A stretch of DNA of 64,000 bases. It comes from a virus. The position numbers and the translations under genes are program-made. The notes under the pieces were generated by a model that had not been told where the DNA came from, did not search any database, and saw nothing but the letters and a program-made list of their open reading frames with translations. The DNA is taken from IMG/VR virus record IMGVR_UViG_3300031774_000005, positions 1-64,000 of that record; one strand, 5' to 3'. Below, in pieces: positions 47,255 to 64,000 of this stretch (position 1 is its first letter; every line of letters starts with the position of its first letter).

Positions 47255-47467
47255 TCACCTGTCTATTTGTAATTGTTTAATTTCTTGAAATGACGCTCTT
47301 AATTCAGCGCACATATGGTCGTATAAAAAAACTAAATACTCTTCAAAAGTATAATCTCTAAACTGTTCATAATCGTCTTTTTCGGATTTATAATCTAAAT
47401 ATAAACCGTCTCTTACCTCTTCTAATCTTTCTCTTTCTAATAATATTTCATCTTCTCTCAAAACCAT
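47255..47467 (-). CDS. Small acidic hypothetical protein
   Basis: GGAGG before ATG 47467. Confidence 0.55.
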   Translation of the reverse strand: MVLREDEILLERERLEEVRDGLYLDYKSEKDDYEQFRDYTFEEYLVFLYDHMCAELRASFQEIKQLQIDR

Positions 47468-48348
47468 TCCTCCAAACTTCTTTGTATTGTTCCCGTTCTT
47501 ATTGATGTTAAATCCCATGCCATCGCACTAAAAATAGGCTCGGCCTTCTTTACTACTTGTTCGGCATAGTGCTTGAGGTCGGGATTACAACCCTCAAACT
47601 CCTTCGCAGTTGTGCATGATACATACTCAACTACTTTTCTTTCCTTTGTTAAAGGGTGAATATAATACTCACTATTGTTTAATACTTTCATAAAGATATA
47701 TGAATCATCAAATTCAGTATCTTTACTCCAAGCATAAATAACTCCTGCGATACCCGAACCTATTGTCGGTTTTTTACCTTCAAGAGTTGTGAATTTCTTT
47801 GTATGTGTAGCGCATTTACTACATACAGAATGCTCTAATTCTAAACATTCTTTTAGATGATATTTAGCATTACAATCCGGACATTTAACCATGAGCCTAT
47901 TAGTTCTTAATCTACTTCTTTTAATAAGAGGCGTTAGTCCTAACTTTCCATCTAAAACATCGGCATACTTAGAGTAAAGAAATTGCACTATTTCTGCTTG
48001 TGACTTTTGATTTACCCACATTTTCAATACATCTGTTTGAACTTCTTTAGCCAACTTAGTTTCACTAACTCTTTTGGCAGTAAATCCGGTCATGCTGAAT
48101 TTAGGCTCATCAAGCCATTCTCCATCTTCCCAAGACACCAAACCCGCATTTCTATTTCTAACAGTTCCGACACCTAATGCTGAAAAATACTTTTCAAACT
48201 CTAATACTACGGGGTGTTCATCTAATCCCATTACATTTGGAAAGTGTTCTCTTACGCTTTCTTCTATCTCCTTGATAGCCGTCTGCGCTTTTTCAACAGA
48301 ATCTATTTGAACATAAATAGAATCAGTATGTCCATAAACTACTTTCAT
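47458..48348 (-). CDS. polB: Family B DNA polymerase, C-terminal subunit
   Basis: Starts MKVVYGHTDSIYV (motif C); LEFEK; Zn finger CPDC/CSKC; PIP box QRSLEEWF. Confidence 0.9.
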   Translation of the reverse strand: MKVVYGHTDSIYVQIDSVEKAQTAIKEIEESVREHFPNVMGLDEHPVVLEFEKYFSALGVGTVRNRNAGLVSWEDGEWLDEPKFSMTGFTAKRVSETKLAKEVQTDVLKMWVNQKSQAEIVQFLYSKYADVLDGKLGLTPLIKRSRLRTNRLMVKCPDCNAKYHLKECLELEHSVCSKCATHTKKFTTLEGKKPTIGSGIAGVIYAWSKDTEFDDSYIFMKVLNNSEYYIHPLTKERKVVEYVSCTTAKEFEGCNPDLKHYAEQVVKKAEPIFSAMAWDLTSIRTGTIQRSLEEWF

Positions 48349-49177: not shown

Positions 49178-49611
49178 ACTTCTAACTCCTTATTTTTATT
49201 TTGTGCGTATTTTAGTGCTTGGATTTGAGAACTAAAAAACTTAAACAAACCATTTTGCCGAGTTCTTTTACCGCACTTTTCACAAGGCGATGATTGAAAA
49301 ATACCATTTTTTAATTTATGTTCACCATGCTTAGTGGACATAATATTATATTGACCGCAACCTTCTTTTGGTGTTCTACCAGCAGGTTTTAACTTATTAT
49401 CTTCTAATTGAACAGGGCATTTCCAAACCACCCAATTTCTTGAATGAATAGGAGATTGTTTTATTTCTTTCTCTAAAATATGGGAATGCCCTTCTCTAAC
49501 TTCTTTATATTTTAAAAGAACGAGGGCTTCTTTTTCTGTAAAACTTAATGCTTCACTCATGGGTAATAAGTCCTTAATTAAAATATAAGTCCTTAAAGTT
49601 ATACCACTCAT
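49174..49611 (-). CDS. Zn-binding hypothetical protein
   Basis: WKCP..GCG..PCEKCG. Confidence 0.6.
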   Translation of the reverse strand: MSGITLRTYILIKDLLPMSEALSFTEKEALVLLKYKEVREGHSHILEKEIKQSPIHSRNWVVWKCPVQLEDNKLKPAGRTPKEGCGQYNIMSTKHGEHKLKNGIFQSSPCEKCGKRTRQNGLFKFFSSQIQALKYAQNKNKELEV

Positions 49612-51263
49612 ATTTCCATCTCCTTCGCCTTAAATGCGGCTAATCTAATAGCCTCTCTTGCACTTGCCGTTATAGAAGCCGCTAAATTAACATTAGCCCA
49701 ACCAAATCCTTGAAAGGCAATAATTCCGTAAAATGAAGCCATTAAACGCTTTACTGCCATTTGATTATTATGCCATTTTTGATACTCGCCACTATCATTA
49801 GAGGCTTTCATTCTTTTCTTATAGTCATTTCTTAACTCTTTTAATTCTAATACTGCTCTTGGTAATAGTCCTAATTCATCTGTTTTAAAATACAACATAT
49901 GTTTCTTTTCAACGGGGCTAAAATCTCTTGGTGTTAGAATATTAACTGCAAATTCTGTTGGTTCTTCACTAATGGTTTCCCAAGATATATTTCTTGCTAT
50001 CATCATTGAAGGATATAGACCTGCAAAATCAAAAGCCGCAACATTAAGATGTAATCCTTGAGTTTGTTCACTTAAAGGGTCATATATCATAGCCCCTTCA
50101 TAAGTTTCTCTTTTCTCTACTTTACTTCCTGTCTTGCATTTCCACCAAGCATTTCTCATAAAGTAAATAGAACCCATGTGAGAAGCGTAGAAACAAGCAT
50201 CAAATGGTGCTTTTAGTAATCTTTGTAGTGATAATATTGCTTCACTACAATAGTTTGATTCATCTATCTCGACTATCAACTTTACATCTTGTATAGCATA
50301 GTCAAGATAAGTTTGAGTATCTTCTAACCAAGCCCTGCGATAAAATTCATTTGTATCGGGAAACTTCTCCGAGACAAGTTTCTTCTTGTTTAGAACTGTT
50401 TCACCAATATAATCAAGAGACAAAGAAGGTAATGTTCCTCTTTGTGAATCATTCCATTGTCTTTCAAATGCTAAATCTAAAGATAAAGTAATTCTTCCAT
50501 TAATAGGTTGTTCAATAGGGCTAAAACCCTTTTCACCATATGCAAAGGAAAAACTATCTTTCTTTTTCTTTATACCTTTAATGTGTCCTGTTGGCGACAT
50601 TATTTGTGGATTAAGACCAAGAGCGCAGGTTCTTTCTAATAACTTAGGTATATCTGCAAAATGACCGAACCATGCAATTAACATATCGGGGTCTTTTACA
50701 ACCATTGTTGTCATAAAGTTTTCAAGCATGTCTTTTTCATTAGTGAATATTTTAGCATTCCCAAGAGGATAAGTGTGCATAATTTTACGCATTGCCTTTT
50801 CAGGAAACCATACCCATTGATGATACTTCTCTTCATAATTATCATACACTACAATAGTAGTAATACAATCGTGATATTCTCCGCCTTGTTGCCATTCCAT
50901 ATCCCAATACCATTTACGCATTTTATACTCCGGCATTTCTTTTACTTCATCAACTGCATATCTAAAGTGAAAAGGCACATCAGCCTCATAGGTTTTCTTG
51001 AACATATCTTTAGCCTTTCTAATATCAAAAGAAGTATCAACTACAACTTTCTTTAACGGCTCATTATCAATATTAACCCAATCACCACGAATATACTCAA
51101 AGTCTCTATCAATATACTTTGATGCCTTATACTTGGAAGGTTCTTTCTCATCTTCTTTAACATAAAAATAAGGTTTAACTTCCACCATTTCAAACTTCTT
51201 TTCACCGTTCTCTCTCCAAGATTTATAGATTCTTTTACCATCATTCATCTTACTTATTATCAT
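49608..51263 (-). CDS. polB: Family B DNA polymerase, N-terminal subunit (exonuclease, motifs A and B)
   Basis: YEADV, WDME (ExoI), YAIQD (ExoIII), FDFAGLYPS, KRLMASFYG. Confidence 0.92.
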   Translation of the reverse strand: MIISKMNDGKRIYKSWRENGEKKFEMVEVKPYFYVKEDEKEPSKYKASKYIDRDFEYIRGDWVNIDNEPLKKVVVDTSFDIRKAKDMFKKTYEADVPFHFRYAVDEVKEMPEYKMRKWYWDMEWQQGGEYHDCITTIVVYDNYEEKYHQWVWFPEKAMRKIMHTYPLGNAKIFTNEKDMLENFMTTMVVKDPDMLIAWFGHFADIPKLLERTCALGLNPQIMSPTGHIKGIKKKKDSFSFAYGEKGFSPIEQPINGRITLSLDLAFERQWNDSQRGTLPSLSLDYIGETVLNKKKLVSEKFPDTNEFYRRAWLEDTQTYLDYAIQDVKLIVEIDESNYCSEAILSLQRLLKAPFDACFYASHMGSIYFMRNAWWKCKTGSKVEKRETYEGAMIYDPLSEQTQGLHLNVAAFDFAGLYPSMMIARNISWETISEEPTEFAVNILTPRDFSPVEKKHMLYFKTDELGLLPRAVLELKELRNDYKKRMKASNDSGEYQKWHNNQMAVKRLMASFYGIIAFQGFGWANVNLAASITASAREAIRLAAFKAKEMEI

Positions 51264-54695: not shown

Positions 54696-55604
54696 CTATG
54701 ATAGTTGGCCAATTAACCATGAGGCTAATACTTTAGGAGTCATAGTGGTTGAACGCCATTCACTTTCTCCTATCGTTCTAAGGACTTTAAATTTCAAATT
54801 GCTATCTAATTCAGCAATTAATACTGCGTCATGCAAGCCAATACAAATTTCACGGATAGTATATCCATCGTAAAGTAAGTTATGTATTGCCTGTAAAGAA
54901 TCTGCCTGTTTATCAATTATTTTCATTAGTATTTTGCTATATTCATCTAAACTGTTATCCACCTGTGCCTTGAGGGAAGAATCACTTGCTTTTGCGGCCT
55001 GTAATTCTGTAATCGCCCTCCGCATATCACCGTTCATAGCATATATAAAGGAGTTCAAATCATTGGTTTCAAAACGAGTTATACCTTCTTTTTGAAGAAT
55101 TGATTGTATTACTTCCAATAATGATTCATTACTCAATGGCTTAAAATGATAGTTGGCACATCTACTTTGTAATGCAAAGATAATCTTATTTCTATCATTA
55201 CAAGTAATAATAAATCTTATATTACTTGAATATCTTTCCATAATTCTTTTCAATGCATTTTGAGCATCATTAGTCATTCCATCCATTTCATCTAATAATA
55301 CGATTCTAAATGGTGCATCACCTATTGTTGCACTTTGAGCAATATTCTTTATTGTTGTTCTTACTGTTTCTAATCTTCTATCATCGGAAGCATTTACTTC
55401 TATATAATTATCAATAAAAGATTCACCAAGTATTTCTTTGGCTAATACTAAAGAAGCACTTGTTTTCCCATTTCCCGGATTTCCATGAATTAAAACATTA
55501 GGCATGTTTCTTTCTTCTATCCATGTTTTAGCGTCTAAACTAAAGTGTTCTTGTCCTATTAAGTCATTTAACTTATTTGGCCTGTATTTTTCTGTCCATA
55601 ACAT
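54696..55604 (-). CDS. rfcS: Replication factor C small subunit (clamp loader)
   Basis: WTEKYRP, GNPGNGKT, NASD, LDEMD, LQSRC, GDMR. Confidence 0.93.
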   Translation of the reverse strand: MLWTEKYRPNKLNDLIGQEHFSLDAKTWIEERNMPNVLIHGNPGNGKTSASLVLAKEILGESFIDNYIEVNASDDRRLETVRTTIKNIAQSATIGDAPFRIVLLDEMDGMTNDAQNALKRIMERYSSNIRFIITCNDRNKIIFALQSRCANYHFKPLSNESLLEVIQSILQKEGITRFETNDLNSFIYAMNGDMRRAITELQAAKASDSSLKAQVDNSLDEYSKILMKIIDKQADSLQAIHNLLYDGYTIREICIGLHDAVLIAELDSNLKFKVLRTIGESEWRSTTMTPKVLASWLIGQLS

Positions 55605-55833
55605 TTTTATTCCTCCATATATTAACATCTTTTATTTTACATTTTCCAATCTTTTCAAATCTTTTATTTCTAAGTAGTTGTGCAATTTGATTTGAGGTAA
55701 ATGAATATGACCTATTGGAAGAACTGCGCTTCCTTGAATTTTCTTTATTTAATTCATCCATTATCTGCCTACAAGTCATTTCTTTATCTTGTAAAACAGA
55801 TTCTATTCTATAAATTAATTTTCTTGTTTTCAT
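55573..55833 (-). CDS. Small wHTH-like protein
   Basis: MTCRQIMDEL..TSNQIAQLLR pattern. Confidence 0.55.
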   Translation of the reverse strand: MKTRKLIYRIESVLQDKEMTCRQIMDELNKENSRKRSSSNRSYSFTSNQIAQLLRNKRFEKIGKCKIKDVNIWRNKNVMDRKIQAK

Positions 55834-57070: not shown

Positions 57071-57428
57071 AATTCTCACTTACTTTTATTCCTAAGTATT
57101 CGCATTTGTATCTAAGAAAATTTAGCCCATCTAAGATTATTCCTTTGATGGTATTTTCTGTTTCCGAAGCGTCTCCTGCAAAGATAAACGCTAAACTTGT
57201 TCCTTGATAAGTATTCCAAGCAACCGCTTGCTTCTCATCTATTGGGTCAAAAAATACTGCCATTTCCGAGTATTTCTTAATCTGTTGAAGATGAATAACT
57301 ACTCCCTTAATCAACAGTTCCACTTCTTCTTCTTTCAAATCCCCAAATACTACAAATGTAAAACTCGTAGCCGTTCCATGACTTTCTATCCATTCTTGAA
57401 TATGAAGGTCATTGAACATAATAATCAT
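57063..57428 (-). CDS. Hypothetical protein
   Basis: 121-aa coupled ORF. Confidence 0.6.
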   Translation of the reverse strand: MIIMFNDLHIQEWIESHGTATSFTFVVFGDLKEEEVELLIKGVVIHLQQIKKYSEMAVFFDPIDEKQAVAWNTYQGTSLAFIFAGDASETENTIKGIILDGLNFLRYKCEYLGIKVSENYV

Positions 57429-57874
57429 TCCTTCATGTATTCCATGTTTGACGGCCAATATCCATTAGGTGCAGTATTTGTTTCTAACCAAAAGAAATGT
57501 GCAGCAGTTATTCGACTATCGCCCCTGCTTATAGCATTTTCTTCTGCGTTGGCTATTAAGTTGCATAAAGCCGTTTCAACCCATTCACCCACGAAATACC
57601 TTGCTTGATTAGAAACTTGTAAATCTGTATTTTCCTTAAACAGTTTTGTTATATTCACCTTTGTTTTTGGTTTATGTTTTGGTATTTGTGGTTTCTCCGG
57701 AATAACAATTGCATTATCTTTGATATAAGGACAATACTTCTGTAATACTAATTTAGGTCTGCCTTGCTCATGTAATATATTTTTAAGATGAGCATAACCT
57801 TCTTTATCAATTTTAATACATCTATAAGTTATGGTATCAATAATTGTCATTTCTCCTGCTTGAATCATAATCAT
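57425..57874 (-). CDS. Protein with C-terminal histone fold
   Basis: ITKLFK..LQVSNQA..VE..LIANAEENAISRGDSRITAAHF. Confidence 0.65.
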   Translation of the reverse strand: MIMIQAGEMTIIDTITYRCIKIDKEGYAHLKNILHEQGRPKLVLQKYCPYIKDNAIVIPEKPQIPKHKPKTKVNITKLFKENTDLQVSNQARYFVGEWVETALCNLIANAEENAISRGDSRITAAHFFWLETNTAPNGYWPSNMEYMKE

Positions 57875-58260
57875 TCCTCTTCCATTGGTTCTAACGCCTG
57901 TTGTAATACTGCTTTAATTAAGCCAATATCATCATTTCCATTCTCTATAAAATTAAGAGCAGTTAGTATGATGTGCTTATGTCTTTGGTCGTCAAGAGCG
58001 TATTTATCATTCTCAAGCATACCTAAAGTTTGAGCAATCTTCTTTTTGGCATCTTTTCTTTGATAGTTTGTTTCGCCTTGTTGATGTAAAAGAATAAATC
58101 TTCTTTGATATAAACCAAGAAGATGAACATATTGAGTTCTTATTCTTCTCATGATATTCCTAATTTCACGATTAGTTTGGTTCATTGATAAATCACTTAT
58201 CTTTATACTTCTACCAAATATATCTGTCATGTATTTAGTATTCCATGATGCACCTTTCAT
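57871..58260 (-). CDS. Hypothetical protein
   Basis: 129-aa coupled ORF. Confidence 0.6.
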   Translation of the reverse strand: MKGASWNTKYMTDIFGRSIKISDLSMNQTNREIRNIMRRIRTQYVHLLGLYQRRFILLHQQGETNYQRKDAKKKIAQTLGMLENDKYALDDQRHKHIILTALNFIENGNDDIGLIKAVLQQALEPMEEE

Positions 58261-59792
58261 TCTAATCTCTCCACATCTTCTAAGGTATTAATATCCGCAA
58301 CAAACTTATCATCTCTAATTCTAACACATCTTGGGAATCTTAAGCCTAAGTTGTCCTTTTCATCTCTTGAAACTAAATCAGCCTTAACTTCTAAAACTAC
58401 AACAGGTGAAACAAAGAACTGCCCATTCTCAAATTTCTCAACATTTCTTCTTAGCGTATTTGTTAGTGTGATTAAATCCTCATCGGAAAAACCACTACCA
58501 CACCAACCAACGCTTTGATAACCATTGTCGGACTTTACTCCTAATTCAAATGTGCCGAATACATTTGCTCTTTTACCTTCTCCATACTTAGTAGATAATA
58601 TAACTACATCAAGATTAATTTGTGGTGGTTTGTATTTAGCCCAACCAACACTTCTTTTCCCTGCTTCATAAGCCATTGAAGAATCTTTGACGATAATACC
58701 TTCAAAACCATCATTAATTGCTTGATGATAAAAAGCCATAATATCGCCTTCTGTTATTCGGTGCGCTTGATTCGGTAAATCTTTCATCTTCTCAAGCCTT
58801 TCATTGTATGGTAAATCCATAATAGTTTCATCGTTTAGCATAAGACAATCAAAGATAACCCATTCAACCTTTACCTTTTCTGCCGCTTCTAAATGATTCT
58901 TAGAATGAACTCTTGTAGCCATTAGTTTATGTGGTGCAGGTGTTCCATCATCTTTTATTGGATATATTTCACCATCAAGTATTGCGTTCTTAATATCATA
59001 CTTTGCACATAATAAAACAATATCGGGGAATTGAACTGTTACCAATTTACCCTTACGATTAAAAATCATTACCTTGCCATCTTCAATATGAATTTGATAC
59101 CTATTACCATCATACTTGTAATCAACAACAAAGTTAGTTGGCCACTTATTCATAGGCACTTCTTTTGCTAACATAGGTGCTACAAACTTTCCGTGTGTTA
59201 AATTACATGGAGGTTCTATTCCTCTTTCATAGGCAGAACAAACTACTTCAATAGAATTAAAGTTCAAGTGTTTCTTAACCTCTTTAACTTTCTTCTTGTA
59301 GTAATGAGCCATAATTTTCGTGACTGTTCCTCTATTGATACCGTTTCTTGGTGTTCTTAGAAGATACCTAATGAACCATCTTCGGCCATTAGCAGACATA
59401 CCGACTAAAGCCGTTTCTACATTTGTAAAAACATCGGAATCAATTTTACCACAATTAAATTCCAATATTAGTTTAGCACTTAGTAAAGGCATACCGTCTT
59501 TTATTTCTGTTTCTGCTGAAACATCAAGATAATATATCGCATCTCCTAAATCATTATGAGCCGCTAACAGTCCATCTATTTCACTTTCAAATACATCAAA
59601 TATCTTCGCTAACCATTTCTTAGCCTTTGCTAAACCTAAGTTATTAGCAGTAAGGTTATCTTTATCTAAAATAGATAATACTAATCCTTTATTTTCAAAA
59701 TTCTCAAGAGCGTTTCCTATCATTTTTATCTGTTGCGTTGGTGTTAGAGTATCGCTCGCTTCTAATAACCTTGCCATTCGTTCCCATGTCAT
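58257..59792 (-). CDS. lig: ATP-dependent DNA ligase
   Basis: PMLA, YKYDGNR, LDGE, FDCL, EGIIVK, WAKYK, LRFPR..RIRDDK. Confidence 0.95.
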   Translation of the reverse strand: MTWERMARLLEASDTLTPTQQIKMIGNALENFENKGLVLSILDKDNLTANNLGLAKAKKWLAKIFDVFESEIDGLLAAHNDLGDAIYYLDVSAETEIKDGMPLLSAKLILEFNCGKIDSDVFTNVETALVGMSANGRRWFIRYLLRTPRNGINRGTVTKIMAHYYKKKVKEVKKHLNFNSIEVVCSAYERGIEPPCNLTHGKFVAPMLAKEVPMNKWPTNFVVDYKYDGNRYQIHIEDGKVMIFNRKGKLVTVQFPDIVLLCAKYDIKNAILDGEIYPIKDDGTPAPHKLMATRVHSKNHLEAAEKVKVEWVIFDCLMLNDETIMDLPYNERLEKMKDLPNQAHRITEGDIMAFYHQAINDGFEGIIVKDSSMAYEAGKRSVGWAKYKPPQINLDVVILSTKYGEGKRANVFGTFELGVKSDNGYQSVGWCGSGFSDEDLITLTNTLRRNVEKFENGQFFVSPVVVLEVKADLVSRDEKDNLGLRFPRCVRIRDDKFVADINTLEDVERLE

Positions 59793-59937
59793 CTATAATC
59801 ACTTCCATATTTTCATTTATATTTTTTATCAGTTCTTTTAACAGGCTACTGATTTTCCCGTCATGCTTTTCAGCATATGTCCACATAGCATTTGCTAAGT
59901 AAATCCATTCATTCTTCTTCATTTGATTCTTCCCCAT
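59704..59937 (-). CDS. Hypothetical protein
   Basis: 77-aa ORF overlapping neighbours. Confidence 0.45.
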   Translation of the reverse strand: MGKNQMKKNEWIYLANAMWTYAEKHDGKISSLLKELIKNINENMEVIIDDMGTNGKVIRSERYSNTNATDKNDRKRS

Positions 59938-60274
59938 CTAATCTTTGAAGCAATCTCAAGAAGTTAGCCATGATTTGTTGTATAGTATGTATTTCTTCTT
60001 GGTTGCCTCTTTCAATAAAGCGGTGCATCATATGAATAAAAGTTGCTTGAGTAATAGCAGGTGCTAATCTTGCTAAATCGTTATGGGAATAAATCTCCCA
60101 ATAACAAACAAAAGAGGCTCTTGCTAAGTAATTACCTTTAGCGATACCTGCATATCCCATATTAAAATGTTCTAATTCAACATCATTAAGTGCTTTCTTT
60201 TGTTTCTTAGCCCATTCATCAAACTTCTTATCATTTGTTGTTATTAAAAATAATTTATTGTTCATCTTCTTCAA
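59909..60274 (-). CDS. Hypothetical protein
   Basis: 121-aa ORF. Confidence 0.6.
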   Translation of the reverse strand: MKKMNNKLFLITTNDKKFDEWAKKQKKALNDVELEHFNMGYAGIAKGNYLARASFVCYWEIYSHNDLARLAPAITQATFIHMMHRFIERGNQEEIHTIQQIMANFLRLLQRLDGEESNEEE

Positions 60275-60527
60275 CTCCTTTATCCATAAAATCTCTTAAT
60301 GTTTTGTAAAATCTACTGTATGCTAATTCAACATGAAGTCTTTGAACTCTACTTCCTGCCCCTTTTCTTGGTGGAACAGTCATTTGACTTTCCAAATACT
60401 GTGCAAATAAATCCATTAAATCTGCTGAACAGTTAATGAATAAATCTACTGAACCATGTCCATACTGTCTATCTTCGTTTGCTTTCTTCAAACTCTTTTT
60501 GGCTTGAACTACGCTTATTCTTTTCAT
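60255..60527 (-). CDS. Putative histone-fold protein
   Basis: ISVVQAKKSLKK (a1), long central helix, GSRVQRLHVELA (L2-a3). Confidence 0.5.
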   Translation of the reverse strand: MKRISVVQAKKSLKKANEDRQYGHGSVDLFINCSADLMDLFAQYLESQMTVPPRKGAGSRVQRLHVELAYSRFYKTLRDFMDKGVEEDEQ

Positions 60528-60733
60528 TCTATCTCTCTCCCTAATATTTGTAATAATAATTTTGCTTCTTCCATGTTCACCCGAACACCTTTCATTGTTG
60601 GTAAATTATCTTTAAACCAGCGAATATCCAAGACTTCAATATTCCTGTATTTACCTCTTTTAATTTTACATTCCATGCTATCATCACGGATAATAGTTCC
60701 AATAACTTCTAATCCATCTGTCATGTTAGCCAC
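60524..60733 (-). CDS. PC4-like ssDNA-binding protein
   Basis: YRNIEVLDIRWF...PTMKGVRV. Confidence 0.75.
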   Translation of the reverse strand: MANMTDGLEVIGTIIRDDSMECKIKRGKYRNIEVLDIRWFKDNLPTMKGVRVNMEEAKLLLQILGREIE

Positions 60734-61523: not shown

Positions 61524-63038
61524 TTAAGCCTCCGGCAATAATACTGCTACATCTGTTGAGTAGAATAAAGATGCTATTGATAATGCCGCCAAGAAACTAT
61601 TCTTAACTACCTTATATGGGTCAAAGACTCCTGCTTCTTCTAAGTTTTCTATCTTATTAGTAAGAGCATTGTAGCCCATACCGGAAGAAACATCAATTTC
61701 TAATTTTGATGAAACATCACCGCTATTTTCAATCAATGTTAGCATTGGTTGTTTTAAAGAATATGTGAACCACTTCGGTAAAGTATCGTCTTTTGCTAAT
61801 TTAGCATATAATGTTCCTCCACCAACTACAATTCCTTCTTCTAATGCGGCCTTTGTTGCATGTAAAGCATCATCAAGTCTTTCTTTAGTTTCTCGCATTT
61901 CAATAGATGAAGAAGCACCAATTCTAATTGTGGCAACTCCCCCGCTAAGTTTTGCTATTCTGTTTTTGATTCTTGCTACTTGATGTCCTTTAGTATCTTT
62001 AGCCTGTTTCTTAAGCGTTTCAATTCTACTTAGAATCTCATATTCTTTTTCTTCATTTGTTCCAATAAAGGTAGTTGATTCTTTGGTAATAGATACTTTC
62101 TTACAAGTTCCTAAATCTAAAAGAGTGAAAACTTTAGGGTCGTCTTTGCTTTCTTCAACAAAAACTCTTCCACCTAATGCACAAGCCATATCTCCTAATT
62201 CATTTATTTGTTCATCACCAAAATTAGGTGAAAGGACAACTGCACATTGAATAGTCTTTTGTAAAAGATTCATAACTAAATTATTCATGGCTGAACCATC
62301 AAACCCTTTACAGAAAATAACAAGAGGCCGGTTGTTTGCTGAACTAAATTCTAATAGTGGCATAATATCGCTAAACTTTCTAATAGAAACATTAGACATA
62401 AACACCAATGGATTATCAAACTCAACACGGCCATTTTCAGTATTGCACATCAAATGACTTAGATAGCCTTCATTGATTTCCATACCTTTTCTAATCTCAA
62501 TTTCTGTATTATAATTATTAGATTCTTCAACGGTGATAATACCGTCTCTTCCTACTTCATCAATTGCTCCTTTAATTAGACTACCAAGATGCCTGTCATT
62601 GTTTGCCGCTATTGTAGCAACATTAAGAACATCGTCGTTTTCTACTTCAACAACATAAGTATCTAAATAATTAATCATCGTATCTCTTAAATCGCTAATT
62701 AAGTTATTAAAATCATGAATTGACATATCTTCTCCAAAATCAACTAAATTATTACAAAAAGCCTGTGCTAAAATACAAGCGGTAGTTGTTCCATCGCCCG
62801 AATTATCTTGTGCTTTACTTGCTAAGTTTTGAACTAATTGTATTCCCATTTGAACATACGGGTCTTCATGAGAAATATACTTTGTAATGGTAACTCCGTC
62901 ATTAATAATAATGGGTGGATTACCTTGCAGTATAACTGTTTTGGCTTGTGGGCCAAGTGTAGGTTTTACTGTATTAGCAACTAAATTAATTCCTTCTAAC
63001 AATTTCTTTTTAACTTCTATTCTATCATTCAGTATCAT
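61524..63038 (-). CDS. groEL: Group I chaperonin (GroEL-like)
   Basis: TLGP, NDGVTI, GDGTTT, RIAKLSGGVA, DDALHATKAALEEGIVVGGG, GVFDP. Confidence 0.93.
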   Translation of the reverse strand: MILNDRIEVKKKLLEGINLVANTVKPTLGPQAKTVILQGNPPIIINDGVTITKYISHEDPYVQMGIQLVQNLASKAQDNSGDGTTTACILAQAFCNNLVDFGEDMSIHDFNNLISDLRDTMINYLDTYVVEVENDDVLNVATIAANNDRHLGSLIKGAIDEVGRDGIITVEESNNYNTEIEIRKGMEINEGYLSHLMCNTENGRVEFDNPLVFMSNVSIRKFSDIMPLLEFSSANNRPLVIFCKGFDGSAMNNLVMNLLQKTIQCAVVLSPNFGDEQINELGDMACALGGRVFVEESKDDPKVFTLLDLGTCKKVSITKESTTFIGTNEEKEYEILSRIETLKKQAKDTKGHQVARIKNRIAKLSGGVATIRIGASSSIEMRETKERLDDALHATKAALEEGIVVGGGTLYAKLAKDDTLPKWFTYSLKQPMLTLIENSGDVSSKLEIDVSSGMGYNALTNKIENLEEAGVFDPYKVVKNSFLAALSIASLFYSTDVAVLLPEA

Positions 63039-63192
63039 TCTTTCCTCTCCTATATTGTGTTTCTTTAATTCCTTCTTGTAGTAAATAAACAAGAATCTCA
63101 TTTGTTGTCATATTTAGGTCGTCTCTCATCTTCATTATGAAACTCCATTGTTGTTCCGTAAATGGTAATGAATTAATATTTATTTCCTTCAT
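63025..63192 (-). CDS. 55-aa ribbon-helix-helix-like protein (not in ORF track)
   Basis: MKEININSLPFTEQQWSFIMKMRDDLNMTTNEILVYLLQEG; overlaps groES stop and groEL start. Confidence 0.5.
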   Translation of the reverse strand: MKEININSLPFTEQQWSFIMKMRDDLNMTTNEILVYLLQEGIKETQYRRGKNDTE

Positions 63193-63437
63193 TCTTTCAC
63201 CAACTTAGTTTGTTTTGTTTTAGAAAATACTCCCAACAAGTTTTCTGTTGGAACAAAAATCATATCTTCATGTGTTGGGAATCTATGTCTATCATCAAAT
63301 AGAACTTCTTGTCCTTCTAATTCGGGATATTTAGGACATGAAACAACAAGCCCTCTTCCATCAGTTTTAATTTGAATACCACTTGAAGAAGTTGAGTTCT
63401 CAAGTTTAATTATGCAATAATCTCCAATAGCCCTCAT
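63189..63437 (-). CDS. groES: GroES-like co-chaperonin
   Basis: MRAIGDYCIIK..SSSGIQI..GLVVS..GQEVLF..NLLGV; GGAGG-type RBS; near groEL. Confidence 0.7.
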   Translation of the reverse strand: MRAIGDYCIIKLENSTSSSGIQIKTDGRGLVVSCPKYPELEGQEVLFDDRHRFPTHEDMIFVPTENLLGVFSKTKQTKLVKE

Positions 63438-63706
63438 TACTCTTCCTCCGATGGTAAAGCAACCCAACCTCTTGCAGTTTCGGAAACCCATACTGATGTA
63501 TGAGTTTTGTAAAACTGTTTCAGTCTTTTGTCTCTTTCTGTTTCTTTAGACCAAGTAATGCCTCTATCTTCCCTTCTAATGTTTTTATCATTAGGGTGTC
63601 TTTCTTGATGCCTTCTTTGTCTTTCAAGAAGAGTTTTAGGTTCTTCATCTACAATGACTTCTCCATATTCTCTTTTCTTTTGTTTTCTTTTATTATACAT
63701 ATTCAT
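63437..63706 (-). CDS. Basic hypothetical protein
   Basis: 89 aa, R/K-rich. Confidence 0.55.
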   Translation of the reverse strand: MNMYNKRKQKKREYGEVIVDEEPKTLLERQRRHQERHPNDKNIRREDRGITWSKETERDKRLKQFYKTHTSVWVSETARGWVALPSEEE

Positions 63707-64000
63707 TCCTCTTCATTTCCATATTGATTCCATGTTTGGGTTCTTTCTAATTCGTGATTAACATAAATATCTAATTGTTTAGGTTTATCGTTTTCCCAAA
63801 AACCATAGTGGCCTTTGCCACCTAAAACATAAGCAGTTTCCATCAATGGTTGCCAAATAGATACTGTGCTAATATCTGTTCCACTAAAATAAGCACTACC
63901 GAATGGGTGTGTATGAATCCAACATCTAACAGGCATTTTCATTCCTTTAGGAACAGAACCAAAATCAACAAAACCGGATGAACCGGATGAAACATAACAA
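63703..64000 (-). CDS. JAMM/MPN+ metalloprotease (5' end probably outside the window)
   Basis: WIHTHPFGSAYFSGTD = HxH-x7-S-x2-D. Confidence 0.8.
   Translation of the reverse strand, partial: CYVSSGSSGFVDFGSVPKGMKMPVRCWIHTHPFGSAYFSGTDISTVSIWQPLMETAYVLGGKGHYGFWENDKPKQLDIYVNHELERTQTWNQYGNEEE

Follow-up and report, generated by a model that had tools for sequence, protein, structure and literature searches.

Two Divergent Proteins With Predicted Histone Folds in the Replication Block of a Magrovirus

The window analyzed here, i.e., the first 64,000 nucleotides of the 75.5-kb IMG/VR virus record IMGVR_UViG_3300031774_000005, covers the replication arm of a tailed virus of Marine Group II/Poseidoniales archaea, a magrovirus. 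On its minus strand it encodes two small proteins, termed P1 and P2, that a first-pass annotation had described as two divergent histone-fold proteins. This description holds for P1 on the basis of sequence profiles as well as predicted structure and for P2 on the basis of predicted structure only. Both genes are single-copy and restricted to viruses and belong to the conserved, syntenic core of the replication block in magroviruses. We favor the reading, to which we assign a probability of roughly 0.55 with the fold assignments included, that P1 and P2 form histone-fold dimers that act on viral DNA inside the cell, as DNA-architectural factors or as accessories of the replisome.

The two open reading frames (ORFs) singled out by the first-pass annotation, 57425-57874 and 60255-60527, are both present on the minus strand. 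The proteins and the domains of P1 are as follows:

57425..57874, minus strand: P1, putative KOW-like/histone-fold fusion protein, 149 aa (ORF, homologs and AlphaFold2 (AF2) model)
57701..57868, minus strand: predicted SH3/KOW-like beta barrel of P1, residues 3-58 (AF2, VIA-align)
57659..57700, minus strand: basic K/P-rich linker of P1, residues 59-72, net charge +4, variable in sequence (alignment; the predicted local distance difference test score, pLDDT, dips to 69)
57428..57658, minus strand: predicted histone-fold domain of P1, residues 73-149, acidic, isoelectric point (pI) 4.8 (profiles, AF2, Foldseek, VIA-align)
60255..60527, minus strand: P2, putative minimal divergent histone-fold protein, 90 aa (AF2, Foldseek, VIA, hidden Markov model (HMM) search)

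Sequence and Predicted Structure of P1

The sequence of P1 holds NITKLFKENTDLQVSNQARYFVGEWVETALCNLIANAEENAISRGDSRITAAHFFWLETN, and the motif by which its C-terminal part had been likened to archaeal histones is indeed present, albeit with a different spacing, namely ITKLFK-x5-QVSNQA instead of x4 and QVSNQA-x8-E instead of x7. Translation likely starts at the second ATG at 57868 (MIQAGEMT...), the equivalent of which is used in 61 of 68 P1 homologs. A word-indexed search retrieved 64 clusters of P1 homologs, all of them from marine metagenomes and several bearing PF00808 or labeled 'histone H3/H4' by JGI. When 24 diverse P1 relatives were compared with Pfam, 21 matched PF00808 (CBFD_NFYB_HMF; best E value 2e-5) and nine matched Histone, and a 73%-identical ortholog from a complete 96-kb genome lies above the curated PF00808 cut-off (24.3 bits). 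The P1 of the window itself yields no PF00808 match in Pfam, only one to DUF1931 with an E value of 0.15, which we take to be another histone-fold family. A PDB search with the profile of the P1 family gave HmvA/MJ1647, a variant archaeal histone, at an E value of 3.6e-4 (8bdk) and NF-YB chains from plants at 2e-3; the alignment with NF-YB spans alpha3, where it includes a Trp, and extends into the C-terminal helix. Judged by these profile comparisons, the likeness of P1 to histones exceeds chance, since PF00808 is found in 21 of the 24 relatives, the ortholog scores over the cut-off and HmvA is matched at 3.6e-4.

The AF2 model of P1, calculated on the family alignment (pLDDT 81), bears out two features that had been noted earlier, a beta domain at the N-terminus and a K/P linker (PEKPQIPKHKPKTK, net charge +4). 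It predicts a beta domain of six strands (residues 9-57), alpha1 (75-82), L1 (83-88), an alpha2 of 29 residues (89-117), L2 (118-122) and a very short alpha3, followed by a conserved W-L-E-T-N...G-Y-W motif in a stretch of low confidence and a C-terminal helix (141-148). The top matches of this model in a Foldseek search against the PDB are all histone folds (CHRAC, H2A, HmvA; probability 0.94-1.0, E ~0.1). In a VIA-align search, which is independent of Foldseek, residues 73-149 retrieve ORP1, NF-YB3, CHRAC, NC2beta, Dpb4, H2B and archaeal HPhA at Z scores of 5.6-6.8, among them ORP1 with 6.8, NF-YB3 and CHRAC with 6.2 each, NC2beta with 6.0 and HPhA with 6.0 at a root-mean-square deviation (rmsd) of 1.7 over 59 residues. 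For residues 2-60 the same tool reports KOW5 of Spt5 (6ir9_W, Z 6.0, rmsd 2.7 over 54 residues), KOW6-7 of human DSIF (5ohq_A, Z 5.6) and Spt5 from M. jannaschii (4zn3_A, Z 5.5), and the barrel is also matched by Tudor and SH3-like barrels. PF00467 (KOW) was not found in Pfam at E<=1 for P1 or any of 23 relatives, and P1 does not contain a KOW sequence motif, so that the term KOW-like barrel is a statement on the fold only. Taken together, P1 is predicted to be a fusion in which a basic linker joins a KOW/SH3-like barrel to an acidic histone fold of the H2B/NF-YB type.

Two further features of P1 are conserved. Within the barrel, C19 and C48 are invariant among 68 sequences, and H29 and H35 are kept in 59 and 60 of these, respectively; these residues could point to a metal site or a disulfide. 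Residues 127-146 (57428-57500, minus strand) form the aromatic motif F-[FY]-W-L-E-T-N-x2-P-x-G-Y-W-x2-N-x2-Y after alpha3, in which W129, E131, G138 and W140 are invariant and pLDDT values range from 56 to 76. This motif looks like a surface for partner binding or for folding on binding.

Sequence and Predicted Structure of P2

Residues 58-69 of P2 are GSRVQRLHVELA; the protein does not end there, as had been stated, but continues for 21 residues that are predicted to lie within a long alpha3. A word search found six close relatives, and an exhaustive HMM search extended the family to 35 representative clusters with the consensus RIS..QAKK.L.KAN..RQ......F...S..L.DLFA...E..M..PP..GRG.RVQ..HV. 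The homologs P0073 and P0074 (loci L038, L048, and L055) are longer (130-175 aa) and carry a charged, coiled-coil-like C-terminal extension of the heptad type. The BFVD viral structure library returned only weak matches to P2, mostly with unnamed proteins.

The AF2 model of P2 was based on 29 sequences and reached a pLDDT of 90.5 and a predicted template modeling score (pTM) of 0.72. It comprises alpha1 (residues 6-16), L1 (17-25) with the near-invariant residues N17 and R20, alpha2 (26-47), L2 (48-62, PP..GRGxR) and a long alpha3 (63-89) that ends in an acidic tail, and AF2 folds the monomer in the open arrangement of histones instead of packing it into a bundle. In the PDB, Foldseek places HapE/NF-YC, the Asgard histone HHoB, HapC and TAF12 on top (probability 0.98-1.0, TM up to 0.62/0.73). 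A VIA search of 48,161 chains, independent of Foldseek, identified CENP-X (3b0b_C) with a Z score of 7.2 and an rmsd of 2.4 over 72 of 75 residues and CENP-W with 6.8, and H3.V, TAFs, H4 and archaeal HPhA were also among the matches. Over all VIA comparisons, CENP-W (3b0c_W) and H4 (2yfv_B, rmsd 2.1 over 71 residues) reach 7.0. Judged from the match descriptions, 47 of the 50 best matches are histone folds, and 846 of the 998 top chains from Foldseek reach Z>=5 against P2 in VIA. In shape, the predicted structure is closest to CENP-X, CENP-W and H4. A distant member of the family, P0102, shows full-length and in-register, though sub-threshold, matches to Histone and CBFD_NFYB_HMF in Pfam (E 0.018 and 0.036).

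Features Shared by P1 and P2

The AF2 models of the two individual proteins, which the first-pass annotation had proposed as a check, both exhibit the histone topology of helix, loop, long helix, loop and helix, and they retrieve histone-fold chains almost exclusively in Foldseek and VIA. The shared motif SR[IV]xxxH reported for both proteins is found in them and is conserved as [SC]-R-[IV]-x3-H throughout both families (P1: R121 kept in 66 and H126 in 65 of 68 sequences; P2: R60 kept in 44 and H65 in 42 of 45). It is located at the junction of L2 and alpha3, where canonical histones feature RKT-[IV]-x3-D, and as it replaces the latter, the R-D clamp is absent from both families. According to the literature, the 'universal histone signature' consists of the Arg of 'RV' in L1 plus 'RKTV' in L2, with the R-D clamp formed by residues seven positions apart (PMC13260811). 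P1 does not conform to this nucleosomal signature, as it has Q86 at the position of the L1 Arg and G-D-S-R-I-T-A-A-H in place of G-R-K-T-I-x-x-x-D, and neither does P2, which retains the L1 Arg (R20, 42 of 45 sequences) but reads G-x-G-[SC]-R-V-Q-x-x-H and thus lacks the Asp. Basic residues are conserved at positions in alpha1, L1 and L2. P2 is a basic protein overall, with a basic alpha1; its residues 1-62 have a pI of 9.6, whereas its tail is acidic.

A comparison of the P1 fold with P2 by hhalign, made with a view to paralogy, aligned the two in exactly the register put forward in the first-pass annotation but without significance (probability ~1%, P 0.04-0.07).

Distribution and Synteny

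Eighty IMG/VR loci with P1 were recovered, about 55 of which include 3.4 kb or more of sequence upstream of this gene. P2 is present in all of these ~55 loci, 2.3-3.7 kb upstream of P1 on the same strand and with the ligase gene between them. P1 and P2 are separated by three or four genes, and each complete genome contains a single copy of P1. Both genes are also present in two loci that were reached from divergent P2 representatives (L081 and L085). On the other hand, three loci (L082, L083, and L084, on records of 9.7, 77.5, and 56.4 kb) encode P2, a neighbor of 116-124 aa and the ligase and have no P1 at the syntenic site. In record G001 (77.5 kb, 83% complete), which represents the lineage of L083 and L084, the P1 alignment A1 found no match anywhere at E<=10, a search that detected P1 in four of four genomes used as positive control. 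These loci constitute a separate magrovirus-like lineage with P2 but without P1.

No P1 relative was detected in 185,579 species-representative prokaryotic genomes, so that this search gave no trace of a host origin of P1. In GenBank phage records, tblastn yielded no match for P1 and only distant ones for the ligase.

Short contigs from three runs labeled as RNA cover small parts of the region, and the uncovered parts carry no meaning. A 223-nt contig from an oligo-dT RNA-seq library of marine origin (run X24) is identical to 60230-60452 inside P2, which gives a weak hint at expression of P2 without amounting to proof of transcription. Contigs over 57966-58513 stem from two runs labeled as metagenomic RNA-seq.

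Genomic Setting

The minus-strand arm of the window is made up of densely packed, co-directional genes joined by ATGA overlaps of 4 nt. In addition to P1 and P2 it contains:

47458-48348 and 49608-51263, minus strand: B-family DNA polymerase (PolB), split in two genes (Pfam)
54696-55628, minus strand: RFC-type clamp loader (Pfam)
58257-59792, minus strand: ATP-dependent DNA ligase, located between P2 and P1 (PF01068, E 2e-39; synteny conserved)
60524-60733, minus strand: PC4-like putative single-stranded DNA-binding protein, 69 aa (PF02229, sub-threshold)
61524-63101, minus strand: Cpn60 chaperonin (Pfam)

The replicative block of magroviruses has been described as containing a GroEL-type chaperonin and, in group B1, a split polymerase (PMC5434244). 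Pfam matches place a split PolB, RFC, the ATP-dependent ligase and the GroEL-type chaperonin of the window in one block, and it is the agreement of this gene set with the published description that identifies the window as the replication arm of a magrovirus. The virus probably belongs to group B1, and its relatives reside on IMG/VR contigs of 92-97 kb. P1 and P2 sit in the replication block; the earlier label of this region as an 'early arm' is an inference.

The PC4-like gene lies directly upstream of P2, its stop codon overlaps the P2 start (ATGA), and a homolog occurs at the same position in locus L085. The match of the encoded protein to PF02229 (transcriptional coactivator p15) has an E value of 4e-4 and a score of 20.2 bits at a cut-off of 25 bits.

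A gene for a protein of 129 aa (57871-58260, minus strand) between the ligase and P1 has a weak match to a helix-turn-helix family in PHROG (E 0.016). It is missing in L081 and L085, where the stop codon of the ligase directly overlaps the P1 start, and represents a lineage-specific insertion. Many genes of the arm encode acidic tails (..EEE, ..NEEE, ..EEDEQ; 57871-57900, 59909-60274, and 63437-63942), and EEE also terminates most P2 homologs (alignment A4). In the tail encoded just upstream of P1, the codons GAA GAG GAA TGA double as the Shine-Dalgarno-like site GGAAGAGGA and as the ATGA stop/start overlap for the next gene. The acidic C-termini would thus seem to be a side effect of signals for translational coupling.

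Proposed Function and Alternative Explanations

Each protein would form a handshake dimer, P1-P2, P1-P1 or P2-P2, and the dimers would bind double-stranded DNA without sequence specificity. DNA would probably be contacted by the barrel, by the linker with its lysines and by the paired-loop sites (the conserved R20 and R60 of P2, R121 and K/R80/92 of P1). During replication, such dimers would serve as architectural or replisome-accessory factors on viral DNA, with Dpb3-Dpb4 on Pol epsilon and MHF1-MHF2 with FANCM as the nearest analogies. Such a role is suggested because the genes are located among replication genes next to that for the PC4-like protein and because basic loop residues are conserved and the linker is rich in lysine. 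The genes for the PC4-like protein and the ligase make the neighborhood one of DNA handling. The proposal does not comprise packaging of DNA in the capsid. Tailed viruses pump naked DNA through the portal, and for this reason chromatin inside the capsid is unlikely; chromatinization of viral DNA inside the cell is possible.

Several observations weigh against this reading. The region of alpha3 and alphaC in P1 is modeled with low confidence (pLDDT 56-76), the histone fold of P1 is acidic, and it has neither the canonical L1 Arg (Q86) nor the R-D clamp (D119...H126). For P2, significant sequence matches were obtained neither with Pfam (searched with 7 and 29 members) nor with PDB profiles built from alignments A3 and A4 nor with PHROGs or the ESM Atlas. 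In the P2 model, alpha2 is short (22 residues) and L2 is long (15 residues, rich in Pro and Gly), and all Z values remain below 8, a range that, according to the notes accompanying the tool, widespread ways of arranging helices can also produce. Histone folds moreover serve in pure protein-protein assembly, e.g., in TAFs and SAGA.

The points listed for P2 would be explained if it were a generic helix-loop-helix-loop-helix protein, the matches of which are due to a common arrangement of helices or to a bias of the predictor. We deem this unlikely in view of the 47 histone folds among its 50 top matches, the coverage of near-whole chains (in CENP-X, 72 of 75 residues superposed at 2.4 Å), the confidently predicted open conformation, the conservation of Arg in both L1 and L2 where it would be expected and the in-register, sub-threshold Pfam matches of P0102. 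The homogeneity of the match list and the coverage of near-whole chains are the reasons why we give the structural matches more weight than Z values below 8 would suggest, and a histone fold for P2 is accordingly rated as quite probable. By its predicted structure, P2 represents a previously unrecognized divergent histone-fold family that is not described in the searchable literature.

The main rival concerning function is transcriptional regulation by the virus in the manner of NC2/NF-Y, through a dimer that acts on promoter DNA or on TBP-DNA, with the KOW-like barrel contacting RNA polymerase, partners of Spt4/5 or nascent RNA, and that switches between viral gene classes or shuts off host transcription. 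NC2beta (1jfi_B) is among the best matches for both proteins; its identity to P1 (23% at Z 6.0) is the highest in the list, and it matches P2 with a Z score of 7.1 but an rmsd of 8.6. The profile match of P1 to NF-YB and the resemblance of its N-terminal domain to KOW domains of Spt5 point in the same direction, as does the link to transcription suggested for viral KOW histone-fold proteins in an hLife paper (PMC13681535). However, many other histone folds score equally high as NC2beta, the barrel is devoid of a KOW sequence motif or Pfam KOW match, and P1 and P2 sit among replication genes and not among transcription genes, which renders a regulator of this type distinctly improbable compared with an architectural or replisome-accessory role.

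Most Thermoplasmatota lack histones, and for the Poseidoniales only an 'acidic quadruplet' (four-fold) histone-fold protein has been reported, which carries few of the signatures of histones and possibly does not bind DNA (PMC13260811). As the presumed hosts reportedly have this atypical protein only and no canonical histones, and as no hypernucleosome that could be disrupted is known from them, the earlier suggestion that the viral folds poison host histone dimers or hypernucleosomes has next to no plausibility, its sole support being that an acidic fold such as that of P1 might in principle form a pair with a histone-fold protein of the host.

A further rival concerns the composition of the dimers. 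An obligate heterodimer, as already put forward in the first-pass annotation, of P1 as the larger H2B/NF-YB-like subunit with alphaC and P2 as the minimal partner would resemble the pairs NF-YB/NF-YC, CENP-S/X, CENP-T/W, and Dpb4/Dpb3, in which a large partner with alphaC likewise meets a minimal one, and the best structural matches indeed belong to complementary classes (NC2beta, NF-YB and CENP-S-type for P1; CENP-X and CENP-W for P2). It is further consistent with the co-occurrence and synteny of P1 and P2 in all P1-bearing loci with enough sequence, with the complementary charges of the acidic P1 fold and the basic P2, with the common [SC]R[IV]xxxH motif and with the expected register of the profile-profile alignment. 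Against it stands the lineage that has P2 only (L082 and L083/L084, the latter including the 83% complete G001). In addition, a mirror-tree test of 49 non-identical loci with ligase distances as control gave no co-variation beyond phylogeny (partial Mantel r for the P1 fold and P2 given the ligase -0.05, permutation p 0.71), the likeness found by hhalign is not significant (P 0.04), and three or four other genes separate P1 from P2. Fused (Rosetta-stone) forms of P2 with at least 196 aa were not found, which is weak evidence. P0098, noted in this connection, is a spurious repeat protein. In sum, we consider obligate heterodimerization possible but less likely than not.

A more elaborate picture is a two-component magrovirus system on replicating DNA, in which a KOW-tethered, acidic NF-YB/H2B-like protein is combined with a basic, minimal CENP-X/H4-like one. 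We view this picture as rather speculative, and the same doubt attaches to the idea that the system would act as virus-specific chromatin or as a replisome clamp akin to Dpb3/4 or MHF. If it were true, it would be the first histone-based DNA organization described for a tailed archaeal virus, operating in a host lineage without canonical histones, and a new family of histone-fold proteins would be founded on P2.

Significance

To our knowledge, histone-fold proteins in tailed prokaryotic viruses were recognized only in 2024-2025, and we know of none that has been characterized. The present analysis places one class of them, the viral KOW histone-fold proteins (VKHFP), in an abundant virus group, the magroviruses of Marine Group II, and in a functional block, that of replication. 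It adds with P2 a second conserved, putative histone-fold protein that HMM-based surveys would miss. Histones of magroviruses are not discussed in the searchable literature mentioning these viruses, and as far as that literature shows, the joint conserved placement of P1 and P2 in the magrovirus replication block is new. Since the presumed hosts are reportedly devoid of canonical histones, P1 and P2 are unlikely to be simple copies of host proteins and may illustrate how the histone fold is reused for viral DNA replication or for the control of transcription.

Comparison With Known Systems

VKHFP were mined from IMG/VR and assigned to Caudoviricetes (hLife 2025, PMC13681535). P1 shares with them the small KOW-like barrel, the long loop and the histone fold, the origin from IMG/VR Caudoviricetes contigs and the likeness of the barrel to KOW6 of DSIF (PDB 5OHQ; Z 5.6 for P1). 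Because this architecture and the comparison with 5OHQ define the class, P1 is assigned to the VKHFP reported in 2025, as judged by architecture and predicted fold. In contrast to the present analysis, PMC13681535 mentions neither magroviruses nor Poseidoniales hosts, a replication-block context or a second histone-fold gene.

Among cellular proteins, the H2B-like subunits with alphaC, i.e., NF-YB, NC2beta, CHRAC-14/Dpb4, and CENP-S/MHF1, superpose on residues 73-149 of the P1 model with Z scores of 5.6-6.8. P1 differs from them in its N-terminal barrel and linker, its acidity and the absence of an RKT/D clamp. The P2 model superposes on nearly the whole chains of CENP-X/MHF2, CENP-W and H4, but P2 is only 7-13% identical to these proteins without detectable sequence homology, its alpha2 is shorter (22 residues), its L2 is long and rich in Pro and Gly, and its alpha3 is long with an acidic tail.

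With archaeal histones (HMfB/HTk) and HmvA/MJ1647, P1 is connected by HmvA as its best profile match and by the superposition of HPhA. Unlike in archaeal nucleosomal histones, RKTV...D is replaced by [SC]R[IV]...H in both P1 and P2, and P1 has a Gln for the L1 Arg and an acidic fold; formation of hypernucleosomes is not supported. Finally, 'phage histones' and coiled-coil histones that bridge DNA have been described for tailed viruses (Schwab et al., 2024, PMC11390915). P1 and P2 have in common with these the occurrence of predicted histone folds in tailed viruses, and some P2 relatives also possess a C-terminal coiled-coil extension. Phage histones, however, are truncated in alpha3 and carry a C-terminal tetramerization helix, whereas the P2 of the window is predicted to have a long alpha3 that ends without an extension and P1 a full-length alpha2.

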